Source: an archaeon
Lineage (GTDB): Archaea > Nanobdellota > Nanobdellia > Woesearchaeales > GW2011-AR9
Assembly (NCBI GenBank): GCA_018697095.1
Contig: JABHSG010000003.1
Span: forward strand, 285,505 to 349,504
Length of the DNA stretch: 64,000 nt
Reading direction: 5' to 3'
The first letter of the stretch is position 1. Each line of letters starts with the position of its first letter. A program made the position numbers and the translations under genes. This document shows positions 3,801 through 54,763 of the stretch, piece after piece. The notes below the pieces were generated by a model. The model worked only from the letters and a program-made list of their open reading frames with translations. It searched no databases and was not told where the DNA came from.

Positions 3801-3867
3801 AACACAAATTCAAGAGAAGCACACTTTTTAAATCTAGCTTTATAGTTTAACTACTACACCAACAGAA

Positions 3868-4599
3868 TTACTTTTTCCGAGCCTTAGCCATGCTCCATAA
3901 AATCTCAAAGTATTTTCTATATGCGTCAGCCACAGCTTTGCTATGCATCACAATCCCATGCATCGGCTGACCCCAAAGTATCAATGCAACTTTATCCCCA
4001 TAGATATGGGTAGGGTTTGGATTAAACAAATTGTCAGGTAACAGTTTATACTTAGATTGTTTTCCTTCAAAAAATGTAACTGCGCTCTCACGAGACAAAA
4101 GTTTCTCAACAAATCCAGCACGCTGCATTTTTGCAATATGCTGCTTGATCGCAATCGGATCAAAATCTAAAAACAGTTCTTCATCAATTCCCATAGCACA
4201 TAACTGACCACCGCAAGAAGACAAAGTTTTGAAAATGTCAGTATAAATATTACGTAGTACCAATTTACCTTTAATCACTTCAACTTGTGTTTCATCATGA
4301 TCCTTAAGATACATCTCTTTAAGTTTTGGAAGTACGGAATCAAATTCTAATTTTTTCTCATCCAAATAATCATGAATTTTTTCAGGATCCATTGCTTTGA
4401 AGTGTTTTGTTTTTCCAATTAGGACATATGATACAAATCCTTTCTCCAGTAATCTCTCCAAAGCATCATAGCAAACTTGTCGATGTAATCCCGACTTCCC
4501 CGCAAGCTTATACGCAGTAATCTCACCAACACTAATCAAGGTCAAATAAATTTCAACTTCATTAGCTGTTAGTCCAAGTTTTTTAAGTACGAGTCTCAT
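3868..4599 (-). CDS. TrmB-family transcriptional regulator (paralog 1)
   Basis: N-terminal winged HTH (LGLTANEVEIYLTLISVGEITAYKLAGKSGLHRQVCYDALERLLEKGFV) plus a C-terminal TrmB-like domain; paralogous to 61423..62175. Confidence 0.8.
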   Translation of the reverse strand: MRLVLKKLGLTANEVEIYLTLISVGEITAYKLAGKSGLHRQVCYDALERLLEKGFVSYVLIGKTKHFKAMDPEKIHDYLDEKKLEFDSVLPKLKEMYLKDHDETQVEVIKGKLVLRNIYTDIFKTLSSCGGQLCAMGIDEELFLDFDPIAIKQHIAKMQRAGFVEKLLSRESAVTFFEGKQSKYKLLPDNLFNPNPTHIYGDKVALILWGQPMHGIVMHSKAVADAYRKYFEILWSMAKARKK

Positions 4600-4712
4600 A
4601 GAGTTCTAAAAACCTTCATTCAATTAAAAGCCTTACTGCCGTAAAGATTCTTACGACTATCCTTTTTCTACAAGCTAATGCTCCACTCAAAAAACAAAAT
4701 GGAGAATAGAAT

Positions 4713-4949
4713 ATGATTGAATACAAACTAGAAGACGCAAATCTACCGTACGTAATCCCAACCACTAAAGGCATTGACCCAAATCAGCTAAACCCTAGTA
4801 TAGAAGTGGTGCCAAGAGTTATGTATGAGGCTCGCACAGCACCAACAAATGTGCCAATAGAAAGTACCGCAGCGGCAGCAGTTTTAGCAGGGTTAGTTTT
4901 TGCTGGAGTTTATGTTGCATCAAACATAGATAAGTGGAGAGGTAAATAA
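4713..4949 (+). CDS. small hypothetical protein with C-terminal transmembrane segment
   Basis: 78-aa ORF with a GGAGA RBS-like sequence upstream; hydrophobic C-terminus AAAAVLAGLVFAGVYVA. Confidence 0.35.
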   Translation: MIEYKLEDANLPYVIPTTKGIDPNQLNPSIEVVPRVMYEARTAPTNVPIESTAAAAVLAGLVFAGVYVASNIDKWRGK

Positions 4950-4964
4950 ACCAATAATTTACTT

Positions 4965-5951
4965 ATGGCACTCACAAAACTACTAATCACTTTCTTCAAC
5001 AAACATTTACTAAGAGATTTCTTTAAAGTAGATCTTAGTGGTATAGAGCGCAGTATCGCCGTAGACTCAGTTAAACAAAAATATGCCAAAGGTACTGGTT
5101 CTGCAATTCTTTCAGGCATTTTTCTAATTCCTGCAATTTTATTTTTAGACACAACTGTTCTGGTTTCTGTATTAATTCCAATAACTATGGTAGCAGGAAC
5201 TGCTTGGTTTGCAATTTCGCTAGCAAATGTTAGAAAAAAGTTCGAAGACTTTGGTTTAGAATTAACTACTGATATGTTTGAAGCTTTCGCAGCTTCACTA
5301 ATTATGCTTGCAATGCTAACCTTTTTCTCCTTACTACCTTTGCCAAAAAATCACTTAATAACCATAGCACAAACCAATCAACTAATCCCAATACTTGCAG
5401 CAGTTTTAGGGATTTGTGTAGTTTTCAGACTTCTGTACAAAGTTTTTCAAGGCTCAGTCAAGTATGATATAAACGATGCTATGTTAACAGGTCAAAACGA
5501 ATCAGCAGAACGTTTTTTCAAAAAATCACTTTCCTTATTACACACTTCAGCTGACAATCTACGTTCTGGCAAAGGACTTGAAGTAGCAAATTATTATCTT
5601 GGATTATCATTTTATGAGATCTACGCTTTTATTCAAGAGACTGGTATTTTGAATGGGAAACTTAAGGGTCTTATGAATAAAGCGCTTTTACTAAAACAAA
5701 ATCCAACAATGGAACAACTTCAAGCAGATGAAATTTCAATAGATCTGATTGAAAATTTTGTTTTTTATTCTAAAAATATTGAAGGTCAAAAATCAAACAA
5801 ATGTTTTGACCATATTAAAGATGAACTTCACTGCATTAAAAGCAACAAAGATGAACCTCAAGAGATAGTGGATGCCAGGCTTTCAACTATTTTCTCTGAA
5901 ATTGCAGAACTTCTAGAATTGCAAGGTGAATCACTTTTCAAAGCTAATTAA
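4965..5951 (+). CDS. integral membrane protein of unknown function
   Basis: 328 aa with several predicted TM helices in the N-terminal half. Confidence 0.5.
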   Translation: MALTKLLITFFNKHLLRDFFKVDLSGIERSIAVDSVKQKYAKGTGSAILSGIFLIPAILFLDTTVLVSVLIPITMVAGTAWFAISLANVRKKFEDFGLELTTDMFEAFAASLIMLAMLTFFSLLPLPKNHLITIAQTNQLIPILAAVLGICVVFRLLYKVFQGSVKYDINDAMLTGQNESAERFFKKSLSLLHTSADNLRSGKGLEVANYYLGLSFYEIYAFIQETGILNGKLKGLMNKALLLKQNPTMEQLQADEISIDLIENFVFYSKNIEGQKSNKCFDHIKDELHCIKSNKDEPQEIVDARLSTIFSEIAELLELQGESLFKAN

Positions 5952-6021
5952 TTGGTTTTTAACTACGTGTTAAATAATAAAATTCAGTCATTTTATATAC
6001 GGAAATCACCTTTCTTTTACT

Positions 6022-6360
6022 ATGAATGTCACTTCCCCAGAATTTCTTTCAACTATCGCAGGGCCAATTGCTGATACTGTAGGCTCAGTTGTAGCACCAT
6101 TCATGCAATGGATCAGTGTGGGAATAGGTGGGCTTTTTGGTTTGTATACTATATACTTTATTATCAAAATCTTAATAGATAAGCATCGGTTATCTGTACT
6201 TAACGAAGTAAAGGCTGAAGTTGATAGTTTAAGACAGCAAATGCCCAGTAAAGATGACATAAGAAAATTAACAGCCCTTTTAGAAAAAGACGCAAGGTTA
6301 AAATCAAATAACAAAAAAATCACGAAAACCAAATCCACTAAAACAAAAAAACGTAAATAG
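6022..6360 (+). CDS. small membrane protein with coiled-coil and Lys-rich C-terminal tail
   Basis: 112 aa with one TM helix (GIGGLFGLYTIYFIIKILI) and a KKITKTKSTKTKKRK tail. Confidence 0.4.
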   Translation: MNVTSPEFLSTIAGPIADTVGSVVAPFMQWISVGIGGLFGLYTIYFIIKILIDKHRLSVLNEVKAEVDSLRQQMPSKDDIRKLTALLEKDARLKSNNKKITKTKSTKTKKRK

Positions 6361-6367
6361 GTATTAC

Positions 6368-7066
6368 ATGGTCAAAATAACAATCCAAAAAGAGGTTTTC
6401 CAAAAAATCCCTGATCTAAAAATAGCTTTTTTCCATCTAACAAATGCAGACAATCAAAAAAATATCAAAGAATCAAAAATTCTAATTGAAGAAACTGCGC
6501 AGCTTGTAAGACTTCTTTATCATAAAGATTCAATTAGAACACATCATTTGATTTCGCCCTGGGAACTTGCCAGGCTCGATATGAAAAAAAAAATGGTTCC
6601 AATGCATTCTGCTGTTGAACACTTTTTTAGTATGGCGCTTCACTCTCAAAAAGTTTCTATCAATTCAAGTGCTGAAAACATCTTAAGGCACATTCTTTTT
6701 CGTCATATTGTTCCAGGCTCTACTGATGACTTGGATAAAATTCAAGGTGATATCACTTTCAAACTCGCAAAAAAAAATCAAAAACTTTCTTGGTTTACGC
6801 AGCTTAGTAAAAACGATTTGATTTACAAAGACCAATCAAATACTAATCCATACATTGGCGCTAAATTAGATTTTGCAAAAAGCCCTAGAACCAGAACCAG
6901 TAAATATTCTAAAAACATATTACTGCATCTTGATTTTCTTCCAATCATATCGCCAAGTAAACAAAGACAAATTATTACAGAAACAAAAAACCTTTTAGAA
7001 GCTTTTACAGATGCTAAAGTCAAAACAGCAATTCTCACTCAAAACAAGAACACTCACAGCTTCTAA
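6368..7066 (+). CDS. possible stand-alone B3/B4-domain (PheT-like tRNA-binding domain) protein
   Basis: N-terminus MVKITIQKEVFQKIPDLKIAFFHLTNADN resembles solo B3/4-domain proteins; weak and unverified. Confidence 0.4.
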   Translation: MVKITIQKEVFQKIPDLKIAFFHLTNADNQKNIKESKILIEETAQLVRLLYHKDSIRTHHLISPWELARLDMKKKMVPMHSAVEHFFSMALHSQKVSINSSAENILRHILFRHIVPGSTDDLDKIQGDITFKLAKKNQKLSWFTQLSKNDLIYKDQSNTNPYIGAKLDFAKSPRTRTSKYSKNILLHLDFLPIISPSKQRQIITETKNLLEAFTDAKVKTAILTQNKNTHSF

Positions 7067-7075
7067 AAATAATCC

Positions 7076-7828
7076 CTAAGCAGTAAAACTTTTGTTATTT
7101 TCATATGATTCCCTTGCAAACATATCTTCTGCCTCTGTTGCAAAATCAAGTAGTGTTGCTCTATAAGTCCGAACACCTTTTTCTCTTAATCGTTCATACA
7201 AATTATTGTAATCTGCATAAACATGATTCAATCCTGCACAATGCACAACACGCCCCTCTTTTTGCATAATAGTATCAATTGTAACATCATCTCGTTCATG
7301 TATAGATCTAGCATGTTCAGTATTGATATGTTTTGCAGGATTATCTAGAAACCAAAAATAATCTCTATCTACAATTAGTTGATGATTTTCATGGAAATTA
7401 GTCTCTTTATCAACAATTATATTTTGTATTCTTCTAAGAAATTTAACATAGTCATCTAATTGACCACTATAGGTGCCTTGTACCTTTTCATTTTCTGACC
7501 ACGTTATACTCTCTTCAAAGTTTCCTCTAAAGTATGCCATTGCGGCCATCCACGTACCACCAAGCATATTCAAAATCACATCTTTTTGAAATATAGTTAA
7601 TTCTGATTGTAGTAATTCTTCAAACAGGCATATTCTATCTTGAAGATATTCTGGTGTGCGAGCAGAGGTTTCAGTTGTTACATGATCTGGTTGGAAAGTT
7701 TCAAATGCCCTAAGGTAACGTCTTGCTAAACTAGGATCAATGTGCTGTTCTCCAATTAAAATCACTTCTGATGGTGGCATAACAACCAAAAACAAGCCTG
7801 TTTTAAAACAATTTTCAAAAAACAGCAA
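7076..7828 (-). CDS. possible TraB/GumN-family protein; start may be the internal Met near 7780
   Basis: VILIGEQHIDPS...FQPDHVTTE resembles the TraB/GumN N-terminal GTAH..PD..VavE motif; weak. Confidence 0.35.
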   Translation of the reverse strand: MLFFENCFKTGLFLVVMPPSEVILIGEQHIDPSLARRYLRAFETFQPDHVTTETSARTPEYLQDRICLFEELLQSELTIFQKDVILNMLGGTWMAAMAYFRGNFEESITWSENEKVQGTYSGQLDDYVKFLRRIQNIIVDKETNFHENHQLIVDRDYFWFLDNPAKHINTEHARSIHERDDVTIDTIMQKEGRVVHCAGLNHVYADYNNLYERLREKGVRTYRATLLDFATEAEDMFARESYENNKSFTA

Positions 7829-7884
7829 AAAAACAATGAACTAAGTTTAAATACTGTGATTTGTAAATTCACTGGATTAAAATT

Positions 7885-9720
7885 TTGCTTCAGCACAATT
7901 TAAATATAATCTCTAGCCCTTCGATCTCCATGTCATTCAAAACTAAACTGATCTTGCTTTTAGAACAAAATACCTCTATCCCTCAAGAAGATATCGCCAA
8001 CCTTCTAACAACTCCACCAAACCCTAAACTAGGTGACTTCGCTTTTCCTTGTTTCAAACTTGTGGATAAACAAGATCCCAAAAATAACAATCCAAAACTA
8101 GCCTCAGAAAATCTCAAAAAACTTTTAGAATCAAAAAAGCTCCCAAACTTCATTAAAGAAACAAAGGTAGTGGGGCCATACCTTAACTTCTTTCTTTCCC
8201 AAAGCACTTTAGCTAAATCTACTCTTACAAACATCCAAAAGCAAAAAGAAACTTACGGACACAATACCCCAGATAAAAAAAATCATATCTTAATAGAATT
8301 CTTTCACGCTAATACTCATAAGGCAGTACACATTGGTCATTTCAGAAACATTTGTACTGGAACCAGTATTGCTAAACTTCTTGAAGCGCAAGGTCACAAA
8401 GTCACTAGAATTAATTATCAAGGTGACGTTGGTCCACATGTAGCAAAAGCCATGTATGCTTACATGAATCTTGCAGACACAAAGAAAGCAGAGCTTTCTT
8501 GTGCAAGTGAGCAGAGCTCACTTTGCAAAAGTGAAGAACCAAAAACAAACAAAGGTATTTGGATTGGTAAACTCTACGCTCAAGGTTCTAAGGCAGGCAA
8601 AGAAGACCCCAAAATAGCACAAAAAATCAAAGAACTAAATACTACGATCTATTCACACAAAAACAAAGAAGTTGAAGCTGTTTGGCAAAAAACCAGGCAG
8701 TGGTGCCTTGACGACTTAGAAGAATTTTACAAAGAATTCGGCGTGAAATTTGACAAACTATATTTCGAAAGTGAAACCATTGAACCAGCAAAAAAGATTT
8801 TCCAAGAATTAATTGAAAAGAAAATTGCAGAGCATAGCGAAGGTGCAATCATTGTAAACCTTGAAGCTGAAAAATTAGCCATTTATGTGGCAATTACTTC
8901 TCAAGGTAATCCTACTTACAACGGAAAAGAAGTTGGTCTTGCAACAATTCATCAAAAAGATTTCAAATTCGATCAAATAATTCATGTGACTGGGTCAGAG
9001 CAAGAACTTTTCTTCAAGCAAGCTTTCAAAACTTATGAAAAAATGAATTGGGATTTGGCAAAAAAATCAACTCATGTCTCCTACGGTCTTGTAACTCTTC
9101 CACATGGGAAGATGAGTTCACGTGAAGGTACAGTTATCCTCTATAGGGAACTCTTCGACACTGGTTTTGAAAAAGCTAAAGAAGAAATAAAAAAACGTCA
9201 TCCAGATCTAAATTTAGGACAAACCAATAAACGTGCAAGGCAAATTTGTTTTGCAGCATTAAAGTACACTATGCTTCATACCAACAACAAACAAACAATT
9301 GTTTTTGATTGGAATACAGCTCTTGACATGGAAGGAAATTCTGGTCCATATCTGCAGTACGCTCACGCAAGATGTAACAGTATTCTCAAAAAAGCAAAAC
9401 TAAGTGAACTCAGCCCAGCAGATCCTAAAAGCACAGATTTCGATCTTTTCACAACAGATCAAGAAAAACAATTAATTCTGCAACTCAGTAAACTTCAAGA
9501 TACAGCTACTGAATCTGCAACCAAATACAAACCATATCTTTTAGCAATTTATACATATGAATTAGCAAAACTCTTCGCTAGTTTTTACGCAGCTTGTCAA
9601 GTCATTGATGAAAATAACAAAGAACTAACAGCGGCAAGGCTACTATTAACGCAGTCCACAAAACAAGTTCTCAAAAACGCACTAAACTTACTGGGAATTG
9701 AAGCGCCAGAGCAGATGTAA
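7885..9720 (+). CDS. argS: arginyl-tRNA synthetase
   Basis: 611 aa; class I HIGH motif (AVHIGHFRN); size and C-terminal DALR-like anticodon-binding region. Confidence 0.9.
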   Translation: MLQHNLNIISSPSISMSFKTKLILLLEQNTSIPQEDIANLLTTPPNPKLGDFAFPCFKLVDKQDPKNNNPKLASENLKKLLESKKLPNFIKETKVVGPYLNFFLSQSTLAKSTLTNIQKQKETYGHNTPDKKNHILIEFFHANTHKAVHIGHFRNICTGTSIAKLLEAQGHKVTRINYQGDVGPHVAKAMYAYMNLADTKKAELSCASEQSSLCKSEEPKTNKGIWIGKLYAQGSKAGKEDPKIAQKIKELNTTIYSHKNKEVEAVWQKTRQWCLDDLEEFYKEFGVKFDKLYFESETIEPAKKIFQELIEKKIAEHSEGAIIVNLEAEKLAIYVAITSQGNPTYNGKEVGLATIHQKDFKFDQIIHVTGSEQELFFKQAFKTYEKMNWDLAKKSTHVSYGLVTLPHGKMSSREGTVILYRELFDTGFEKAKEEIKKRHPDLNLGQTNKRARQICFAALKYTMLHTNNKQTIVFDWNTALDMEGNSGPYLQYAHARCNSILKKAKLSELSPADPKSTDFDLFTTDQEKQLILQLSKLQDTATESATKYKPYLLAIYTYELAKLFASFYAACQVIDENNKELTAARLLLTQSTKQVLKNALNLLGIEAPEQM

Positions 9721-25262: not shown

Positions 25263-26753
25263 GTGGAAAAAATGCAAGAACAAACAAATACATTTCACAG
25301 TAAATTAACTCATCCAGAATCTAAAATTGATTTCAAAGTAAGAGATCTATCTTTAGCAAGTTGGGGAAGAAAAGAACTTGATATTGCTCAAAAAGAAATG
25401 CCAGGACTTATGGCTCTTCGTGAAAAATATGGCCAAAGCAAACCTCTAGCTGGCGCAAAAATCATGGGTTCACTTCACATGACCATCCAAACTGGTGTTT
25501 TAATTGAAACCTTAACCCAATTAGGTGCAGATGTACGTTGGGTTTCTTGTAACATCTTTTCAACTCAAGATCACGCAGCAGCAGCTGCAGTTGTTGGGCC
25601 TAGTGGAGATGAAAAATCAAGCAATTTTCAAGGAGTCCCTGTTTTCGCATGGAAAGGAGAATCACTTGAAGAGTACTGGCATTGCACTATGACTTCCTTA
25701 AGGTGGCCTGATGGATCTGGTCCAGATTTGATTGTTGATGATGGTGGTGATGCAACACTTTTCATTCACCGTGGTGCACAAGCAAAGTTAACTCCACAAA
25801 TTCTTGATAACGATGAAGGTAATGAAGAACTGGCGCAAGTAAACAAACACATCAAAGAAGTCATGGCAATTGATCCAGATTATTTCACCACTACTTTAAA
25901 CAAAATGAAAGGAGTAAGTGAAGAAACAACTACTGGAGTTCACAGACTTTACCAAATGATGGAAAAAGGAGAATTAAAAATCCCAGCAATCAATGTGAAC
26001 GATTGTGTAACTAAATCCAAATTCGATAATCTTTACGGTTGCCGAGAATCACTTGTTGACGGAATTAAACGCGCAACTGATGTAATGCTTGCTGGTAAAG
26101 TAGCTGTTGTGGCTGGTTATGGCGATGTTGGTAAAGGCTGCGTACAATCTTTGAAAGGTTACGGTTGCCGTGTTATTGTTACTGAAATCGATCCAATTAA
26201 TGCTCTTCAAGCAGTTATGGAAGGTTTTGAAGTTATGCCAATGGACAAAGCAGCTCCTCAAGCAGACATTTTTGTAACAACTACTGGTAACAAAGATATT
26301 ATTGTTGATAGACATTTTTTGGCAATGAAAGATCAAGCAATTGTATCTAACATTGGTCATTTTGATAACGAAATTGATATGCATTGGTTAAACAATAGTT
26401 CTGGCTCTTCCAGAATGGAGATTAAACCTCAGTATGATAAATACACTTTTTCAAACGGCAAAGAAATTTATGTTCTTGCTGAAGGAAGATTAGTGAACTT
26501 AGGTTGCGCGACCGGGCACCCTAGTTTTGTTATGAGTGCATCTTTTACAAATCAGGTTCTAGCACAAATCGAACTTTGGACCAAGCCTCATGAGGTTGGA
26601 GTTACTGTACTTCCTAAGATTCTTGATGAAGAAGTTGCAAGATTGCACCTAAGTAAACTTGGAATACAATTAGAAGTACTTAGTGATGATCAAGCAAAAT
26701 ATCTAGGAATTCCAAAAGAAGGCCCATACAAAGCAGAACACTACAGGTATTAA
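25263..26753 (+). CDS. ahcY: S-adenosyl-L-homocysteine hydrolase
   Basis: NAD-binding [14 protein letters not shown]; strong overall AhcY features; 496 aa. Confidence 0.95.
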
Positions 26754-26819: not shown

Positions 26820-27947
26820 CTACAACTTATACTCTCTACCTTTCCATTCTACTTTAGAAAATACAGAGTAAAAAAAAGAGTGAAGTCCAACAACATAAAA
26901 TAAAGTTATCTGCACTGGGTAAAATATAATATTAAACCAAAAATCTTCTCCTGCCAAACGCCAAAAGATCAATTGCTGCAATACAACCCAAAAAGTCAAT
27001 GGTAAAAACATCAAAGAAAAAAATGGCCCAATATATGCTAATAAAGAAATGATGAAAATAACTGTATATAAAAACAAAAAGACAGACCAATGCACTTTTG
27101 TTGCAGTGAATGTATTTTTAGAAAAACCCATAAATGATTCTTTTAAACTCCGATACATTCTACAATTAATTACTTCTTTAGCAGTCCCAATTAAAATGTT
27201 GAATCCTTTTTTTTTAAATTCAATAGCAAGTTGTGCATCATCAAGTATCGCTGATCTAACGCATTCATGCCCCCCTACACTAAAGTATGCTTTTTTAGTA
27301 ACTAAAACGCATTGTCCTTGTGCAACTGCAAAAAATGAACTATTATCATTATTTGTCAGCCATAACGGAAGAAAAGACAAGAGCCCCCAATTTACTAAAG
27401 GAACTAATAATCTCTCACCAAAACTGATCTTTATCTGCTGCGTAAAAAAACTCATTAAATCAACATTTTCTTTTATCTTTGCAGCTAGTAATTTTAGCAA
27501 AGCATTTTTTGTAACAAAAACATCAGCATCTAAAAATAAGTATAATTCTCCAGTTGCATGTTTTGCTCCTTGGTGCAATGCCCACTGTTTTCCCATCCAT
27601 CCATCTGGTAATTTTTTCCCTTTGATCAAACGAACTTTATTCCTTTGAGCATGTGGGCCAATAATAGATTGGCATAACTCATATGTATCATCAGTAGAAT
27701 TATCATCAACTAAAATAACTTCAAAATTAGGATAATTTAAATTCAATATTTTTGGTAATGTTTGAATTATATTATGCGCTTCATTACGCATTGGAACCAT
27801 TATTGTAACTTTTGGCAATGAATCAAGTTTTTTCAAATTAGATATAGGATATTTAGACAAAACTGGTGTTGAAAACAAATTCCATAAAGGAATAAAAAGT
27901 AAAAGTTCAGCAGCAATAATTGAAGCTGTTAAAATAAATTGTGACAT
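26820..27947 (-). CDS. family 2 glycosyltransferase with TM segments (Dol-P-sugar-synthase-like)
   Basis: IMVPMRNEAHNI...ILVDDNSTDDT GT-A fold motifs; paralog of the adjacent gene. Confidence 0.8.
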   Translation of the reverse strand: MSQFILTASIIAAELLLFIPLWNLFSTPVLSKYPISNLKKLDSLPKVTIMVPMRNEAHNIIQTLPKILNLNYPNFEVILVDDNSTDDTYELCQSIIGPHAQRNKVRLIKGKKLPDGWMGKQWALHQGAKHATGELYLFLDADVFVTKNALLKLLAAKIKENVDLMSFFTQQIKISFGERLLVPLVNWGLLSFLPLWLTNNDNSSFFAVAQGQCVLVTKKAYFSVGGHECVRSAILDDAQLAIEFKKKGFNILIGTAKEVINCRMYRSLKESFMGFSKNTFTATKVHWSVFLFLYTVIFIISLLAYIGPFFSLMFLPLTFWVVLQQLIFWRLAGEDFWFNIIFYPVQITLFYVVGLHSFFYSVFSKVEWKGREYKL

Positions 27948-27977
27948 AAGTGCTCAAATTAGCATTTCATTATAAAC

Positions 27978-29450
27978 CTAATCTCTGCGCTTGAAACTAG
28001 ATTTCATGGACGCTACTTTCCGTTTAGCTTTTTTTGTCGCATTTTTTGCTTTTTGTTTAGCTCCATTTTTTGCACTAGAAAATTTAACTAAAGCAGCCTC
28101 CTTGGCCTCATGAACATACTCAGATACGCTCTCAGAAACCTGGCTTGCTTTTTCTTGCACTTCATGCATTCGACTAAGTAGGTGCTTTCTAAGCTTCCAT
28201 GAACCCAATTTGCGTGCTAATTCAGAACTGATATTAAGTTTAGAACGTAGAACTGACAAATCCCAACGCACAGAGATACTATCATCTCCAAGTACATATG
28301 CGCGCCCTTTCCATTCCACAGAACCAAAATGACTTTTCACAAAAGAAATTAATGCTAAACTAGGAAATACAATTAAAACAAGTGGAAATAGCAAGATACT
28401 CCAAAACAGATTCTCTCTAGAGGTGACAGAAATAATTGTTCTTTGCAACAATAGTGCAATCCCAAGTGGCAAAATCCAACTCCATATAAACATTCCAAAA
28501 AAGCCAACGATATAAATTCCAAAAACAATGGTAAATGAAGCAGCATAAAGTAGTGGGTGCATTTTTGCCCCTCTGAAAATACTTTTGATGAATCCCAATG
28601 CCCCACTTTTGAAATCATGATACATTCTGCAAGAAACAAGTTTTTCTCCAAAACAAATCCCATAATCAAAATTCACTTTTTTAACCATTCGGGCCATAGA
28701 TACATCATCTACTATTTCGTGGCGAATAGCTTTATGTCCACCAATTTTATCATAACAAGAGCGTTTAATAAGAATACATTGTCCATTGGCTACTGCAGTC
28801 TTTTTCCATTTTTTGGATCCAATAAGTATCACTGGCATAAATGCAAAAACGCCCCAACTAATAATTGGAACAGTCAATTTTTCTCCAATACTTTTCATAA
28901 TTTGTTTTGGAAAACAGCTAAGCATACAAAGTGAGCGATTTTTCATCTCATATACTAAACTTCTAACTGCGCCTTTATCTACATAAACATCAGCATCAAA
29001 AAACAAATACAACTCTCCACTGGCCAATTTTGATGTTTGCCAAAGTGCCCATGATTTTCCCATCCACCCGCGAGGAAGTGTCTTGCCAGAAACAACTTTA
29101 GCTTTACTCTCAGCATTATATTCTTTAATCAACTTTTTACAAACCTTGTAAGTGTTATCATCACTATGGTCATCAATTAAAATAATCTCTAAGTTAGGGT
29201 AATCTTGTGATAAAAATTTAGGTAAAGTCTTAATCAGATTGTGAGCTTCATTACGCATAGGGATCATCAAACTAACCTTTGGAAGGTACAAGTCACCAAA
29301 GTTTCCAGCAGACCCTTGACTTCTGTCAAATATTTTTTTTAAATCCTTCAAAGAAATCTTTTGCAACCTATGCAAAGTAAAAAAATTAAGTACAGGAATT
29401 ACCAAGAACAAAACTCCAACAATAAAACTTATCCAAAAAAGCCATTCCAT
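27978..29450 (-). CDS. family 2 glycosyltransferase with TM segments and Lys-rich C-terminal extension
   Basis: LMIPMRNEAHNL...ILIDDHSDDNT; tandem paralog of 26820..27947. Confidence 0.8.
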   Translation of the reverse strand: MEWLFWISFIVGVLFLVIPVLNFFTLHRLQKISLKDLKKIFDRSQGSAGNFGDLYLPKVSLMIPMRNEAHNLIKTLPKFLSQDYPNLEIILIDDHSDDNTYKVCKKLIKEYNAESKAKVVSGKTLPRGWMGKSWALWQTSKLASGELYLFFDADVYVDKGAVRSLVYEMKNRSLCMLSCFPKQIMKSIGEKLTVPIISWGVFAFMPVILIGSKKWKKTAVANGQCILIKRSCYDKIGGHKAIRHEIVDDVSMARMVKKVNFDYGICFGEKLVSCRMYHDFKSGALGFIKSIFRGAKMHPLLYAASFTIVFGIYIVGFFGMFIWSWILPLGIALLLQRTIISVTSRENLFWSILLFPLVLIVFPSLALISFVKSHFGSVEWKGRAYVLGDDSISVRWDLSVLRSKLNISSELARKLGSWKLRKHLLSRMHEVQEKASQVSESVSEYVHEAKEAALVKFSSAKNGAKQKAKNATKKAKRKVASMKSSFKRRD

Positions 29451-29539
29451 AAAAAAATATTGATAAACCCATCTAAAAAGCTTTCTAATTTTCTAATTCT
29501 ATCAAAATCCTTTTAAAAAAGAGTGAATAAAACGCATAA

Positions 29540-30778
29540 ATGAAACTTAGATCACTTGCACCAATAATGTTTTTTCTTTCTACTGCGCCAACTTATGCTT
29601 CACCAGGTACCAGTCTAGAGCAAATAGAATCAAATGATCAAATTTTAGAAGGCCTCCCAATACCTTGCCAAAACTATCTTGAGCGAGCAAGACAAATAAC
29701 TGGCAGCGAAGATTTAATTGTACTTGATGAAGGGAGGCAACATGAAGTTGCGTTAGTTGACAGAAGTACTTATTCAACAACTCCAACAGCTTCAACAACT
29801 CCAAACTCACTTGAGCAAGCATTTCTTTGTACAATAAATTATGAAAATAACAATAATGCTTCAACTACAAATTCTCTCTCAACAACTATCGATTACTCTT
29901 CAACGACTCTTGCATACTTTTGGGATCACACGCAAAACAGCCAAAGTAAGCGTCACACATTAAGAGCAAATACTGAACTCTCTTTAAAAGACGGACAAAT
30001 AAGCCAAGAACTTGAGTTAAAAAAGATTTTACCTACAGTCCCTGAAATATCAGTTCTTTTATATCAAAGAACAATAACAAAACTGCGCAGCACCCCTAGT
30101 GATGGGTCGGGAAATACTTCTGGAAATAGCTCCGCAGGTCACACTTTTGATTTTGAAATCACCTCTGACATTATGTGTAGTAATGGGAGTGGTATGATCA
30201 TTGGCGAATATCAAACTGACCAAGTTGGGAGAATAAAAAATACGGATTTTTTAATTGGTTGTCCAAAAAGAACTGGTCCAGATCCAAATGGGCCAAGAAT
30301 GCAAAGAGTAAATCTTGATTTTTTATATTTTGATGGATACCAACAAAATACAGGCGCGGCAACTAATACTAGTCTAGTAGCAAAAGTTAGAGAACAAGTT
30401 TTCGAAGTTCGAAATATTCCAACAAAAATCAATCTTCCAGGCAGAGACAATGGTCCAACTCCAACTAAAGTATGTATCACGCAACACATATTTACTTATG
30501 CTGCTGCCGCAGTACCTGGTTCTGAAATCAATGGTCAATTTGAAACTCCAAATATCCCTTGCCAAGATACAGTTACCTCTTCAGGAAATAGAAGTGGTAG
30601 CAGTGAATCTTTATCTGCAAGTGATGTCTGGGGAACATTTGTAGAAGGTCGCACAAGTAGACAAACAGAACTTTCAATTATCATTAAAACATTTGGATCA
30701 CAAACTGGTCACCTCACCGGTCGCTTCACCGATATTCCAACTGGAGTGCCACTGGTCATTGACACCCTTTCTGATTAA
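29540..30778 (+). CDS. secreted Ser/Thr-rich protein of unknown function
   Basis: Signal peptide MKLRSLAPIMFFLSTAPTYASPG; 412 aa; no family recognised. Confidence 0.5.
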   Translation: MKLRSLAPIMFFLSTAPTYASPGTSLEQIESNDQILEGLPIPCQNYLERARQITGSEDLIVLDEGRQHEVALVDRSTYSTTPTASTTPNSLEQAFLCTINYENNNNASTTNSLSTTIDYSSTTLAYFWDHTQNSQSKRHTLRANTELSLKDGQISQELELKKILPTVPEISVLLYQRTITKLRSTPSDGSGNTSGNSSAGHTFDFEITSDIMCSNGSGMIIGEYQTDQVGRIKNTDFLIGCPKRTGPDPNGPRMQRVNLDFLYFDGYQQNTGAATNTSLVAKVREQVFEVRNIPTKINLPGRDNGPTPTKVCITQHIFTYAAAAVPGSEINGQFETPNIPCQDTVTSSGNRSGSSESLSASDVWGTFVEGRTSRQTELSIIIKTFGSQTGHLTGRFTDIPTGVPLVIDTLSD

Positions 30779-30837
30779 AAAAACAAAACACACCAAAAAA
30801 CACAATCCTTATATTATACTAAAATCAAAACCCAGCA

Positions 30838-31829
30838 TGAAAAAAACAATTGATGTAATGGGTCTTGGTTCAGCCTTAATGGACTTTCTAGTAGAAGTTG
30901 ACGATAATACACTTATGGAATTCGATCTTAAAAAAGGCGAAATGCATTTAGTTGATCAAGAAAAAACAAAATCTGTTCTTCAAAAAATCAAAGATAAAAA
31001 CCTCGAAATAGAAATCATCCCTGGTGGTTGTGCTTCAAACACTCTTAAAGGAATCGCACTTCTTGGCGGCCACGTTATTTTTTGTGGGGCTGTTGGTAAA
31101 GATGAGCATGGGGAAATCTATGAACAAGAAATACAAAAACTCGGAGTTCAATCAAAAGTTTCTCCAACTCCACCTAATATGACTGGACACGCTGTAACTT
31201 TTATCACGCCAGATTCAGAGCGTACTTTTTCAACGCACTTAGGTGCTGCAATCCATTTAAGACCAGAACACGTTCTTGAAGATGACATTAAAAAATCTCA
31301 AGTACTTCATTTGGAAGGTTACCAATTAGAAGGAGATACCAGAGCCACAGTACTTCACGCAATTGAATTTGCAAAAAAACATAATACACTTGTTTCAATT
31401 GATCTAGCGGACCCTGGAGTTATCAGACGTAACAAAGAATTCATCGCAGACCTTGTAAAAAACAAAATTGATATTGTTTTCATGAACGAAATGGAAGCTA
31501 AAGAATTTACAGGTAAAGAAGAGCATGAAGCTTTAGCGCACGCCCAAGATCTCTGCCAAATAACAATAGTTAAACTTGGTGCAAAAGGTTCATTAATTGC
31601 TAGCCAAGGTGAGACTTTCACCATCGACCCAATCAAAGCAAATCCAGTAGATACAACAGGAGCTGGTGACAGTTACGCTGCGGGATTTTTGTATGGCCTA
31701 ACTCACAATTGGCCTCTTGACAAAGCAGGAAAACTTGGGTCACTTCTAGCAGCTAGAGTTATCGAGCAAAAAGGTGCAGGCATGAAAGACATTAGTGCAA
31801 AAGAATTAATTCACAAGGCCTTAGAATAA
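30838..31829 (+). CDS. PfkB-family carbohydrate/nucleoside kinase (adenosine-kinase or ribokinase-like)
   Basis: DTTGAGDSYAAGFLYG ribokinase-family signature; start set at MKKTIDVMGLGSA, the internal Met of ORF 30693. Confidence 0.85.
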
Positions 31830-31838
31830 ACAACTAAA

Positions 31839-32222
31839 ATGGATCCTGACTTAGAAATAAGAAAATCTAACATCAACGGTACTGGTGTGTTTGCAACTAA
31901 GGGAATCAAAAAAGGCGAGATGATTCTTGATTGGAAAGATGTTTCTGACATCATCACAAAAGAGCAGTTCCAAAATCTATCACTTGAAGAAAAAAAGCAC
32001 GTATCTGTAAATAACGATGAATACATATTATTCAAAGGTGTTGCACGTCATGTCAATCATTCTTGTGACCCAAACATGATCGGAAAAGATAAAAAAGATT
32101 TTGCCAAAAAAGATATAAACAAAGGTGAAGAAATAACTGTTGACTATGAATTAGAAAACAATCAAGTCCCATTCACTTGCAATTGTCAATCAAAGAACTG
32201 TAAAAAAATAATCTCTGCCTGA
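31839..32222 (+). CDS. SET-domain protein lysine methyltransferase with post-SET Cys cluster
   Basis: NINGTGVFATKGIKKGEMI, NHSCDPN, GEEITVDY and CNCQSKNC (post-SET CxCx4C). Confidence 0.85.
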   Translation: MDPDLEIRKSNINGTGVFATKGIKKGEMILDWKDVSDIITKEQFQNLSLEEKKHVSVNNDEYILFKGVARHVNHSCDPNMIGKDKKDFAKKDINKGEEITVDYELENNQVPFTCNCQSKNCKKIISA

Positions 32223-32299: not shown

Positions 32300-32794
32300 T
32301 TAATCACACCATCCGTATGGGATCGTCCCTGCTGTGCTTGTATAACATTCAAGATCAATGTCAGAACAATCATAAATTACCTGGACAACTTCTGAGTTTT
32401 CATCACAATAATATTCCCTAAGATAAGTGGTGTCTACACAATTATCTCTGTAGGTCATAGATTCTCCTCCTCCTTCCTGGTAGTAATACACTTCTCCAGC
32501 TTGCAAAACATCAATTCCATCATCTAAATCAAAACAAACATAGGTTGGTTCCTCTTCAACTTCCTCTAAGCTGCCATCTAAATAAACTACCCCTGAAGAA
32601 TCAATGCTTCTACTAGAAACTTCACTAACTCTAATATCTTGCCTATGAGTAAATGTCAAAATTGCTTCGCCTGTAGAGGAAAACTCAGGTGACAAATAAT
32701 TGAAATCATAGGCTGCCCCAAAAAACATCAACAAAATTGCCAAAACTGCAACTCCAGAAACAAGAAACATACTTTTTTTTTCATTATTTACCAT
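32300..32794 (-). CDS. membrane-anchored or secreted Cys-rich hypothetical protein
   Basis: N-terminal signal-anchor MFLVSGVAVLAILLMFFGAA; C-terminal Cys-rich region. Confidence 0.45.
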   Translation of the reverse strand: MVNNEKKSMFLVSGVAVLAILLMFFGAAYDFNYLSPEFSSTGEAILTFTHRQDIRVSEVSSRSIDSSGVVYLDGSLEEVEEEPTYVCFDLDDGIDVLQAGEVYYYQEGGGESMTYRDNCVDTTYLREYYCDENSEVVQVIYDCSDIDLECYTSTAGTIPYGWCD

Positions 32795-32879: not shown

Positions 32880-34001
32880 TTACTCTCTCATTTTTTCAAT
32901 AGCACGATGAATCTCATCGCTAGGATTTTTAGGGGCTATCCGCGATGCCAAATCACTTAGACTTCCACCACTTTTCTTCTTTTTTCCTAAGCTTCCTTTT
33001 TTCTTAGAACCAATTTTTACAGTACCAATACTACTAGCTGCCTTAACGCCACTACTTCCTTTAGAACCACTTTTAGAACTTAAATCAAATTTCACTGCCC
33101 ACATCTCATCTTTAATTTGTTTTTGCACAGGGTCTAAATTATCTTGTGTCTGTTCAGCTTGCCAATTAATTTTGAATCCGTCGTCTTGCCAACGGCCAAA
33201 AACATGAAGTGCTAATCGGCCACTAGGATTATCATCAGATACTCCTGATTTCAAAACCATATTTGTTGCATGACAACCAAGTCCTTCAAAAATAGCTGTT
33301 GATGCAAAAGAAGCTGCAAACCAAAAATGCGCACATGAATCTTGCGATAAATTCTCAACATTACTTTTCTCCTCTTTTGAATAAACAATTAAATGAGCTT
33401 TATTTTCACAAAGAGTGGGAGCCACAACTAGAACCTTCTCATCTTGGTAAACTACATCTCCAGAAATATCATCCAAATGCGCAGCCGCAACTCCAGAACC
33501 ACTATGCCAAGAGGCAGGATGCCTTCCAAAATGATTTTTCATCATAATTGGCAAATTATTAGATAGCATTGTGGTTTGCTCCTTTGCCATTCTATCACCT
33601 TTGCCACGAAATTCGAATGTGGAAAACCCATCTCCTTTCTCTCGAGGAAGTAAATGAACTAAAAAGTGTGGTGACATTTGTCCAGCCACTCCACCAACAG
33701 CTACAAATACGTTAAATCCAGTTCTCACCATTCCTTTTTTAATCGCTTTAGCCAGCGGACTAATCAAAGCAAACATGTGAATGAACTCATCGCCTGGAAT
33801 ATACGCTGGCATGGGGTAATGCTCAGTTAACATGTAAGCCAAGTGCCCCTTAACAGCAGGATAAATATCAATCATAGATACTACTTTACTATCAGAATAA
33901 ACAGTTTTAGCTCCAGGCTGCTCACCTGAAATCAGTTTACAATGGATACACTGCGCCTTTTGCGCTTCCATTTGAGCTTTTTGCTCGGGACTAATTTCCA
34001 T
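32880..34001 (-). CDS. tandem HIT-like domain protein with degenerate histidine triad and Lys/Ser-rich tail
   Basis: First half aligns to HIT proteins (CIHCKLISGE...GGVAGQMSPHFLVHLLPR) but the HxHxH middle His is Leu; a second HIT-like half follows. Confidence 0.55.
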   Translation of the reverse strand: MEISPEQKAQMEAQKAQCIHCKLISGEQPGAKTVYSDSKVVSMIDIYPAVKGHLAYMLTEHYPMPAYIPGDEFIHMFALISPLAKAIKKGMVRTGFNVFVAVGGVAGQMSPHFLVHLLPREKGDGFSTFEFRGKGDRMAKEQTTMLSNNLPIMMKNHFGRHPASWHSGSGVAAAHLDDISGDVVYQDEKVLVVAPTLCENKAHLIVYSKEEKSNVENLSQDSCAHFWFAASFASTAIFEGLGCHATNMVLKSGVSDDNPSGRLALHVFGRWQDDGFKINWQAEQTQDNLDPVQKQIKDEMWAVKFDLSSKSGSKGSSGVKAASSIGTVKIGSKKKGSLGKKKKSGGSLSDLASRIAPKNPSDEIHRAIEKMRE

Positions 34002-34068: not shown

Positions 34069-34311
34069 TCAAACCCAAACACTTTCAACATAAATTGTTT
34101 CTTCTCCACACTTGTATGTTGCAAAAAGTTTACCATCAAGTAACTTAGAGGCTTCAGTTTCAGGTCTAAATAAATCAGAAACCAATCCACCTATTCCTCT
34201 TTCAGCCACAGAATCTTGGATAGCAACAGCTCTACTCATAAAATAATCTTTTGCTGCGCCAACTGTGGCCTTTACTAAAATATAAGGCAACCTATCATCT
34301 GGAAAACTCAT
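34069..34311 (-). CDS. hypothetical protein
   Basis: 80-aa ORF overlapping the tfb start by 4 nt (ATGA). Confidence 0.4.
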   Translation of the reverse strand: MSFPDDRLPYILVKATVGAAKDYFMSRAVAIQDSVAERGIGGLVSDLFRPETEASKLLDGKLFATYKCGEETIYVESVWV

Positions 34312-35228
34312 TTTTTGTTCTTCATTTTCTCAACTTGTTTTGCAAGGTTAAGTTTCTTGATAAGTTCCTTGTAACGGTTTCTAATTGTAACTTCAGTAAC
34401 TCCTGCCACGTCAGCAACCTCTCGTTGAGTACGTTTCTCACCATGAATCAAAGACGAAACATAAAGTGCAGCAGCTGCAATTCCAGTAGGTCCACGACCA
34501 GAAGTAAGTTCAATTCGCCTAGCTTCTTCTAAAATTTCAACAGCCTTACTCTGAGTCTCAGGACTTAACTTAAGTGCTGAAGCGAACCGTGGGATATAAT
34601 CAGATGGATTACTAGGTCTAATACTAATTCCAAGTTCACGAGTAATGAACCGATAAGTTCTACCGATTTCTTTTTTCTCAATACCACTTGCTTCTCCCAT
34701 TTCATCAAGTGTTCTAGGAACTTCATGGCGCCTACAAGCAGCATACAAAGCACCAGCAACAACTGATTCCATTGATCGACCACGTACAAGTCCTTTTTGA
34801 ACAGCGAGTCTATAAATTCTCGCAGCTTCTTCTTCAACTTGTTTTGGTAATTTCAAATATGATCCAATTCTTTTTAATTCTGCAAGTGCAACTTTTAGGT
34901 TCCGCTCAATTGCTGTACTAATTCTGTATTGCCACTTTCGCAAACGAAAGAATTTATCTTTATCTTTACCTAATTTATAATAGTCACTTGTCATTCCAAT
35001 TTCAGTTCCCATTCCTTTATCGAAACTAGTCTCTGAGCTTGGAGCTCCTGCACGTCTTCGGCTTCCACCACGATCATCATCAAAACTACGCCATTCTTGG
35101 CCAAAATCAATCATTCTATCTTCAAGAACAAGTCCACACTCTCGGCAAGTAACTTCTCCTTTTTCTGAATTACGGAAAATCTCTTTACTTGCACAATCTG
35201 GACATTCTTTAATTGCTGGTTTTCTCAT
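34308..35228 (-). CDS. tfb: transcription initiation factor IIB (TFB)
   Basis: N-terminal Zn ribbon CPDCASKEI...CRECG plus two cyclin-fold repeats; 306 aa. Confidence 0.95.
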   Translation of the reverse strand: MRKPAIKECPDCASKEIFRNSEKGEVTCRECGLVLEDRMIDFGQEWRSFDDDRGGSRRRAGAPSSETSFDKGMGTEIGMTSDYYKLGKDKDKFFRLRKWQYRISTAIERNLKVALAELKRIGSYLKLPKQVEEEAARIYRLAVQKGLVRGRSMESVVAGALYAACRRHEVPRTLDEMGEASGIEKKEIGRTYRFITRELGISIRPSNPSDYIPRFASALKLSPETQSKAVEILEEARRIELTSGRGPTGIAAAALYVSSLIHGEKRTQREVADVAGVTEVTIRNRYKELIKKLNLAKQVEKMKNKK

Positions 35229-54697: not shown

Positions 54698-54743
<46 letters not shown>

Positions 54744-54763
54744 AATAAACAGAGGCAATAACA

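Follow-up and report, generated by a model that had tools for sequence, protein, structure and literature searches.

Two adjoining genes, one for a PfkB-family kinase and one for a short SET-domain protein, lie on a 64,000-nucleotide stretch of DNA from an archaeon of the Woesearchaeales (GenBank assembly GCA_018697095.1, contig JABHSG010000003.1, positions 285,505 to 349,504), the whole of which is here called the window. Described systems exist for both. Among SET-domain proteins, Go1-SET of Methanosarcina mazei methylates MC1-alpha (Manzur & Zhou 2005, reviewed in PMC3980110). In nucleoside metabolism, eukaryotes are known to couple S-adenosylhomocysteine (SAH) hydrolase to adenosine kinase, and SAHH and ADK of Arabidopsis interact (PMC8044520). 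Single-domain prokaryotic SET proteins are already known, and the two genes of the window add members to known kinds. An original prediction had joined them into one dedicated methylation module. The features of the pair, with lengths in nucleotides (nt) or amino acids (aa), are as follows.

30809..30816, forward strand: candidate TATA-like box TTATATTA, read from the sequence, 21-28 nt 5' of the kinase ATG
30837..31829, forward strand: PfkB-family nucleoside kinase, 330 aa, by its sequence most likely an adenosine kinase (Pfam PF00294, 1.7e-54)
31830..31838, forward strand: spacer acaactaaa, 9 nt, between the kinase and SET open reading frames (ORFs)
31839..32222, forward strand: minimal SET plus post-SET protein, 127 aa, lineage-specific, a predicted lysine methyltransferase (Pfam PF00856, 5.3e-15)

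Comparison with described systems

Like the SET protein of the window, Go1-SET is a stand-alone archaeal SET protein without eukaryote-type partner domains and a presumed lysine methyltransferase. The two differ in that no MC1 gene was recognised in the window by inspection and that those relatives of the window protein whose context is readable lie on archaeal contigs (L004, L166), a Moranbacteria contig (L001) and bacterial contigs (L205, L170), not in methanogen records. The best match in both sequence and fold is to the SET domains of the KMT2/MLL type (4z4p, 2w5z), which share with the window protein the GxG, NHSCxPN and ELTYDY-like motifs and the CxCx4C zinc site. Identity to these domains is 24-28%, however, and the window protein lacks the N-flanking region and the regions that bind WRAD (WDR5-RbBP5-ASH2L-DPY30), has a much shorter SET-I (iSET), carries Val in place of the switch Tyr and belongs to a prokaryotic host. 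The vSET protein of Paramecium bursaria chlorella virus (1n3j, 3kma) is similarly minimal at 119 aa and gave a Foldseek target-normalised TM-score of 0.81. Its similarity in sequence is weak (E = 7e-4), and the alignments end at residue 103 of the window protein, before the post-SET cysteines.

The kinase aligns over its full length with two rhizobial proteins that are adenosine-bound or adenosine-kinase-like by name, 4e3a of Rhizobium etli and 3ubo of Sinorhizobium meliloti, and has in common with them the lid, the GG...N ribose site and the DTTGAGD loop. Unlike these, it has an archaeal (DPANN) host and stands within a cluster that contains AhcY, the SAH hydrolase. The logic of the eukaryotic coupling of AHCY to adenosine kinase would be the same here, with the removal of adenosine driving SAH hydrolysis; the AhcY of the window is a long, insert-bearing form. 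In contrast to the Arabidopsis SAHH-ADK interaction, the archaeal coupling is seen as operon linkage and gene fusion.

The pair is not conserved in relatives

Pfam matches confirm that the two adjoining genes are real, with the 127-aa SET protein following the PfkB kinase after 9 nt. The start of the kinase ORF, given in the original prediction as 30838, is the ATG at 30837, one base away, and its stop is the TAA at 31827-31829. An in-frame TTG at 30693 was considered as a start and is unlikely, as the orthologues are 323-348 aa long and align from MKKT/MxKTND. An ORF from this TTG would also overlap the upstream gene. The window is archaeal, with the gene for transcription factor B (TFB) as marker; its G+C content is about 35%, and orthologues of the kinase occur in Woesearchaeota and Nanoarchaeota genome bins.

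The neighbourhood of the kinase was examined in 80 species-level loci with an orthologue, and genes were counted within 6 kb of the kinase. A SET profile run over these 80 kinase loci gave no match at E ≤ 1. Reciprocally, a kinase profile run over 80 metagenomic and 80 viral SET loci returned no PfkB match, and the positive controls were recovered in 80/80 cases. In the nearest relatives, namely those with kinases 79% identical (L246, L247) and 66% identical (L006, L248-L250), the kinase is followed by PNP_UDP_1 and then by Pribosyltran, that is, by an MTAP-like phosphorylase and APRT, and no SET gene is present. No MTAP or APRT homologue was found anywhere in the window. The co-occurrence of the two genes in relatives, proposed earlier as a check on the pair, was thus not seen.

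The position behind the kinase is instead a variable slot, bounded downstream by genes for a HIT-family protein and TFB. The slot is nearly empty in five loci and holds an MTAP-like gene, with or without APRT, in many. Its other cargo includes an AbiEii/AbiEi toxin-antitoxin pair, ORF6N, Schlafen/AlbA_2, a GNAT acetyltransferase, YdjM and a class-I methyltransferase, nearly all of them singletons. Such cargo was located at L017:4135-5626, L028:8084-8998, L042:7139-8458, L006:8968-9444 and L029:6987-7718. A recurring theme of S-adenosylmethionine (SAM)-dependent enzymes in the slot was considered and rejected, the class-I methyltransferase in L029 being a singleton. The 164-aa hypothetical protein encoded convergently with the SET gene has no homologue in the 80 kinase loci and accompanies the SET gene on L005. 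The SET gene and this convergent gene are the cargo of this lineage in the slot.

Since the pair is absent from the 80 kinase loci and the 160 SET loci, and since the nearest relatives carry MTAP-like and APRT genes at this position, the SET gene is taken to be a lineage-specific acquisition. Its place beside the kinase is most readily explained as a chance neighbourhood, particular to this lineage, within a variable slot, and the claim of a dedicated kinase-SET methylation module was not borne out. We consider it likely that the two neighbours have separate histories, the one being an adenosine kinase of a salvage cluster and the other a lineage-specific insertion of a SET gene in the variable slot.

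A probable salvage cluster for SAM by-products

The genes around the pair to which the cluster comparison refers are the following.

25263..26753, forward strand: AhcY (S-adenosylhomocysteine hydrolase; TIGR00936, 615.6 bits)
26820..30778, no single strand: insert of about 4 kb between AhcY and the kinase, with two GT2 genes and a 412-aa hypothetical
26820-27947 and 27978-29450, both reverse strand: GT2 glycosyltransferases (Pfam Glycos_transf_2)
29540-30778, forward strand: 412-aa hypothetical protein, no Pfam family
32300..32794, reverse strand: hypothetical protein, 164 aa, no Pfam family, hydrophobic near its N terminus and rich in Cys towards its C terminus, encoded convergently to SET
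32880..34001, reverse strand: HIT-family protein, 373 aa (Pfam HIT, 1.8e-14), the downstream synteny anchor of the variable slot
34308..35228, reverse strand: transcription factor B, a synteny anchor, with homologues of up to 94% identity
54764..55981, forward strand: MetK (SAM synthetase, bacterial/eukaryal type; TIGR01034, 603.5 bits), 22 kb from the kinase-SET pair

An AhcY homologue was found near the kinase in 57 of the 80 loci, always on the same strand, with 42 upstream and 15 downstream; in 20/80 it lies directly upstream of the kinase, contiguous or overlapping. MTAP-like phosphorylases occur near the kinase in 31/80 loci, 20 of them directly downstream or fused, and APRT in 26/80. 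A homologue of the HIT protein lies 3' of the kinase in 24 loci, and TFB homologues were seen in 32 (31 by the ORF-based count), with a Zn_Ribbon_TF and TFIIB annotation in L248. The gene order is kept, with three reverse-strand genes, AhcY, the kinase and the slot followed by HIT and TFB on the reverse strand. In the window the GT2-containing insert of about 4 kb parts AhcY from the kinase, and a related insert with GT2 genes is present in the 66%-identical relative (L006/L248). The original prediction had placed AhcY and MetK correctly in the window, as the TIGR00936 and TIGR01034 matches attest. A search of the 6 kb on either side of the kinase orthologues gave no MetK homologue, and MetK is not linked to the kinase-SET pair.

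In Woesearchaeota and Nanoarchaeota, members of the cluster are also joined into single proteins. Pfam domains identified three-domain fusions of PfkB, PNP_UDP_1 and Pribosyltran in L015 and five similar loci, and two-domain fusions of PfkB with PNP_UDP_1 (L010) and of PfkB with AdoHcyase (L066). The fusions span L015:6001-8286 (likewise L016, L018, L020, L023 and L041), L010:6001-7815 and L066:6001-8520. Fusions of kinase, MTAP-like enzyme and APRT are about 780 aa long, those of MTAP-like enzyme and APRT about 444 aa, and that of kinase and AhcY 840 aa. Slot ORFs in L009, L014, L017, L021, L022 and L048 were grouped with this observation. A literature search turned up no paper on Woesearchaeota adenosine kinases or on fusions of these salvage enzymes.

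AhcY, the MTAP-like phosphorylase, APRT and the kinase all act on the adenine moiety of SAM by-products, which makes adenosine kinase the most likely identity of the kinase. The idea in the original prediction that the kinase removes adenosine produced by AhcY gains strong support from both the conserved AhcY-kinase linkage (57/80) and the domain fusions. We propose that the kinase acts as the adenosine kinase in a conserved Woesearchaeota/Nanoarchaeota cluster of AhcY, kinase and often an MTAP-like phosphorylase and APRT. AhcY would split SAH into homocysteine and adenosine, and the kinase would turn the adenosine into adenosine monophosphate (AMP), pulling the reversible AhcY reaction forward; this pull would in turn relieve the inhibition by SAH of all methyltransferases in the cell. 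In this lineage the MTAP-like and APRT genes are absent from behind the kinase, and the SET gene sits 9 nt downstream instead, probably transcribed by read-through from the kinase promoter. The logic of adenosine clearance fits AhcY and the kinase, not the SET protein specifically.

Several observations weigh against a reading of separate histories with an adenosine kinase. No meaningful direct or inverted repeats that could mark an insertion were found around the SET gene, and its composition is unremarkable (its GC is 0.331, where the window mean is 0.356±0.022, and its GC at third codon positions, GC3, is 0.305, where the window mean is 0.235±0.041). With no mobile-element scar, repeat or compositional anomaly, the route by which the SET gene arrived is left unmarked. 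The 9-nt spacing is constant in three assemblies of the population and so tight that some functional coupling in this one lineage is conceivable. An AT-rich gaattaatt at -36 to -28 of the SET gene, inside the 3' end of the kinase gene, could by its sequence be a weak SET-specific promoter. As to the kinase, no equivalog model of NCBIfam scored above its cut-off and no adenosine-kinase model was among the 24 matches, and we infer the adenosine specificity from similarity, neighbourhood and fusions.

The SET protein and its relatives

The Pfam SET domain matched the protein at 56.2 bits against a cut-off of 22.4, and positions 1-104 of the 105 in the profile were covered. The hallmark motifs listed in the original prediction (GxG, NHSCDPN, ExxxDY and post-SET CxCx4C) are all present, as G14-T-G16, N73-H-S-C-D-P-N79, E98-I-T-V-D102-Y103 and C114-x-C116-x4-C121, and are conserved in an alignment of 34 homologues. 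In this alignment G16, N73-C76, N79, C114, C116 and C121 do not vary, and near-invariance holds for G14, D102 and Y103; the residues of the post-SET zinc site (C76, C114, C116 and C121) are thus present and all invariant. KMT2D/MLL SET domains matched the protein at 5e-12. An AlphaFold2 model of the protein has a pLDDT of 91.7, and Foldseek paired this predicted structure with the SET domains of MLL, ASH1L and NSD at TM-scores of 0.7-0.8 and a probability of 1.00.

V101 aligns with the first Tyr of the TYDY motif in MLL1 and MLL4, a position that we take to be the Phe/Tyr switch. From the alignment, Val101 at this switch suggests that the enzyme is not restricted to monomethylation. The protein would bind SAM via G14-x-G16 and N73-H74, would hold one zinc via C76, C114, C116 and C121, and would methylate protein lysine using Y103.

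The family to which the protein belongs is large. In a library clustered at 50% identity, 3615 cluster representatives matched it at E ≤ 1e-3 and 221 at E ≤ 1e-10; none was more than 50% identical, and many are 120-135 aa long. A profile search from the 34-sequence alignment was dominated by a bacterial SET clade of about 167 aa and did not return Go1-SET by name. One record from Aenigmatarchaeota (DPANN) is already annotated as a SET-domain protein-lysine N-methyltransferase. Odd architectures were noted among the relatives P0267, P0298, P0410 and P0156: three proteins of 1415-1479 aa contain 7-8 SET-like stretches, and an Aenigmatarchaeota protein of 310 aa, about twice the single-domain length, may by its length carry two SET domains. 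A viral source of the SET gene was considered and set aside, as viral contigs hold only distant relatives (≤38% identity) and gave no sign of viral origin.

The metagenome scan for SET loci was built on the nine closest sequences. The closest homologues with a readable context (40-53% identity) lie on archaeal and bacterial contigs. The archaeal contig L004 carries an aCPSF1-like gene; the bacterial ones are L001 (Moranbacteria, Candidate Phyla Radiation, CPR), L205 (with RecA) and L170, in which a 353-aa fusion of class-I methyltransferase and SET (L170:4320-5381) stands beside UvrC and UvrA. When ORFs within 3 kb of the SET gene were clustered over the 80 metagenomic loci, the best apparently real clusters spanned ≤4 loci, giving no conserved partner; larger clusters looked like antisense ORFs overlapping the SET gene. 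Pfam scans of the neighbours in ten loci likewise showed unrelated functions and no shared partner. Because the neighbours differ everywhere, context gives no clue to the substrate.

We explored the possibility that the SET protein acts on the translation apparatus or other abundant proteins and not on chromatin, an alternative that competes with the chromatin reading only. In L166 (region 3231-8511), an archaeal contig with the closest homologue whose context is readable (53% identity), the SET gene follows aIF5B after 6 nt and lies upstream of the S6e and aIF2-gamma genes. This one locus is a possible hint of a translation-related substrate. Yeast SET-family Rkm enzymes methylate ribosomal proteins. 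Within the 64-kb window no histone, Alba or MC1-like ORF was recognised when the small ORFs were inspected by eye, with no profile search; the small basic ORFs resemble the ribosomal proteins L44e, S27e and P1 by eye, without a Pfam scan. On the other hand, the translation context is seen at one locus and the neighbours of other homologues are unrelated to it, the window is a small part of the genome so that the absence of chromatin genes from it means little, and the one archaeal SET protein that has been characterised, Go1-SET, has the chromatin protein MC1-alpha as its substrate (PMC3980110). A substrate outside chromatin is possible but somewhat doubtful.

The junction and expression of the pair

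The kinase and SET ORFs lie in frame with each other, parted by the TAA and three codons (31827-31841). The junction is identical, stop codon included, in two further independent assemblies, L005 and L251, and its presence in three assemblies excludes an assembly artefact. Read-through of the stop or one substitution at the junction would yield a kinase-SET fusion; the stop is kept in all three independent assemblies.

The box TTATATTA stands at -28 to -21 of the kinase ATG, and similar TTTATA/TTATAT boxes precede many other genes of the window by about 25-35 nt. From its sequence and position, TTATATTA is a candidate promoter for a leaderless or short-leader transcript of the kinase, possibly continuing into SET. 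The SET gene has neither a consensus TATA box at -30 to -23 nor a Shine-Dalgarno sequence, and no oligo-T run separates the two genes. Co-transcription of SET with the kinase by read-through is, on this sequence evidence, plausible.

An alternative, that of the original prediction, is that the kinase and the SET protein form a selected two-gene methylation module in which local removal of adenosine spares the SET protein from inhibition by SAH. The gap of 9 nt, the common strand and the fact that no clear promoter or terminator lies between them agree with it, as do the junction stable in three assemblies and the fact that the SET gene took the place of other SAM by-product genes right behind the kinase, 5 kb from AhcY. 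Such a module is nonetheless improbable. The pair occurs in neither the 80 kinase loci (0/80) nor the SET loci (0/160) and is missing from the nearest relatives, its position is a hypervariable slot with unrelated cargo, and the adjacency was singled out after the fact. Moreover, the substrate of the kinase diffuses freely, and hence all methyltransferases would be served equally.

Identity of the kinase

The assignment of the kinase as an adenosine kinase also draws on its own sequence. Pfam PfkB matched it at 185.7 bits (cut-off 25.8), and it carries the motif DTTGAGDSYAAGFLYG. Ribose-binding residues, the nucleoside-kinase lid and the PfkB signature with the catalytic Asp (DTxGAGD) were all found; D16, G63-G64, N68 and D278 line up with D18, G63-G64, N68 and D300 of human adenosine kinase. 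Its best relatives among solved structures are the rhizobial 4e3a and 3ubo, at 162-166 bits (1e-47); 2-keto-3-deoxygluconate (KDG) kinase, ribokinase and eukaryotic adenosine kinases score only about 70-78 bits. Orthologues of 55-79% identity are spread across Woesearchaeota and Nanoarchaeota and are labelled 'adenosine kinase' in NCBI records. From this similarity, the AhcY linkage and the fusions together, the protein is very probably an adenosine kinase. The original prediction had called it adenosine-kinase-like, and this holds up: the similarity to 4e3a and 3ubo, the lid alignment, the AhcY linkage and the fusions do not resolve it as an unrelated sugar kinase.

The kinase could instead be another enzyme of the ribokinase family, such as a ribose-1-phosphate (R1P) kinase or a broad nucleoside kinase that feeds a pentose-bisphosphate/RuBisCO pathway. 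This nucleoside pathway occurs in some DPANN archaea. The highest-scoring NCBIfam model is that for the ADP-dependent ribose-1-phosphate kinase of Thermococcales, with 122.9 bits where the cut-off is 500, and fusion to a nucleoside phosphorylase domain would fit a ribose-1-phosphate pathway too, the phosphorylase reaction releasing ribose-1-phosphate. However, the R1P kinase and ribokinase models align with the kinase only from about residue 50, whereas alignments to adenosine kinases and to Gsk (inosine/guanosine kinase) start at residue 5-7 and take in the N-terminal lid, and the adenosine-kinase-like structures score about 165 bits. The AhcY linkage in 57 of 80 loci and the kinase-AhcY fusion point to adenosine, and the fusion with APRT suggests that the adenine moiety, rather than carbon, is being salvaged. 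We thus regard a different ribokinase-family activity as quite unlikely. Just as small is the chance of an incipient module, in which a SET gene acquired by horizontal transfer replaced MTAP-like and APRT in this one Woesearchaeota-like lineage, formed a bicistron with the kinase and tied protein methylation by SET, at the level of transcription, to the clearance of SAH and adenosine.

Further observations on the neighbouring genes

AhcY aligned over its full length with long forms of the enzyme (464-495 aa), at up to 667 bits; these presumably include the enzymes of Lupinus, M. tuberculosis and Plasmodium. Against 7r3a (S-inosylhomocysteine hydrolase) and several AhcY entries of 407-441 aa it scored only about 275-330 bits. 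We take these shorter entries to be of the archaeal or insert-less type. MetK matches TIGR01034 rather than the archaeal MAT family, and both SAM-cycle enzymes of the window, AhcY and MetK, resemble bacterial or eukaryal types. At 54698-54748, about 16 nt 5' of the MetK start codon, there is an (AAT) microsatellite with about 17 copies. The 373-aa HIT protein adjoins TFB, and its proximity to adenine-nucleotide salvage genes may or may not matter.

Significance

Little hangs on the kinase-SET pair itself; it shows that genes packed closely together in a small archaeal genome do not necessarily form a functional module. The cluster of AhcY, adenosine kinase, MTAP-like phosphorylase and APRT, together with its fusions, provides a firm and testable function for a widespread DPANN kinase, the assignment being made by context. 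SET plus post-SET proteins of 120-135 aa are documented here as a large family, whose members with readable context lie on archaeal, CPR and other bacterial contigs, and these minimal SET proteins could bear on the use of protein lysine methylation in ultra-small prokaryotes.

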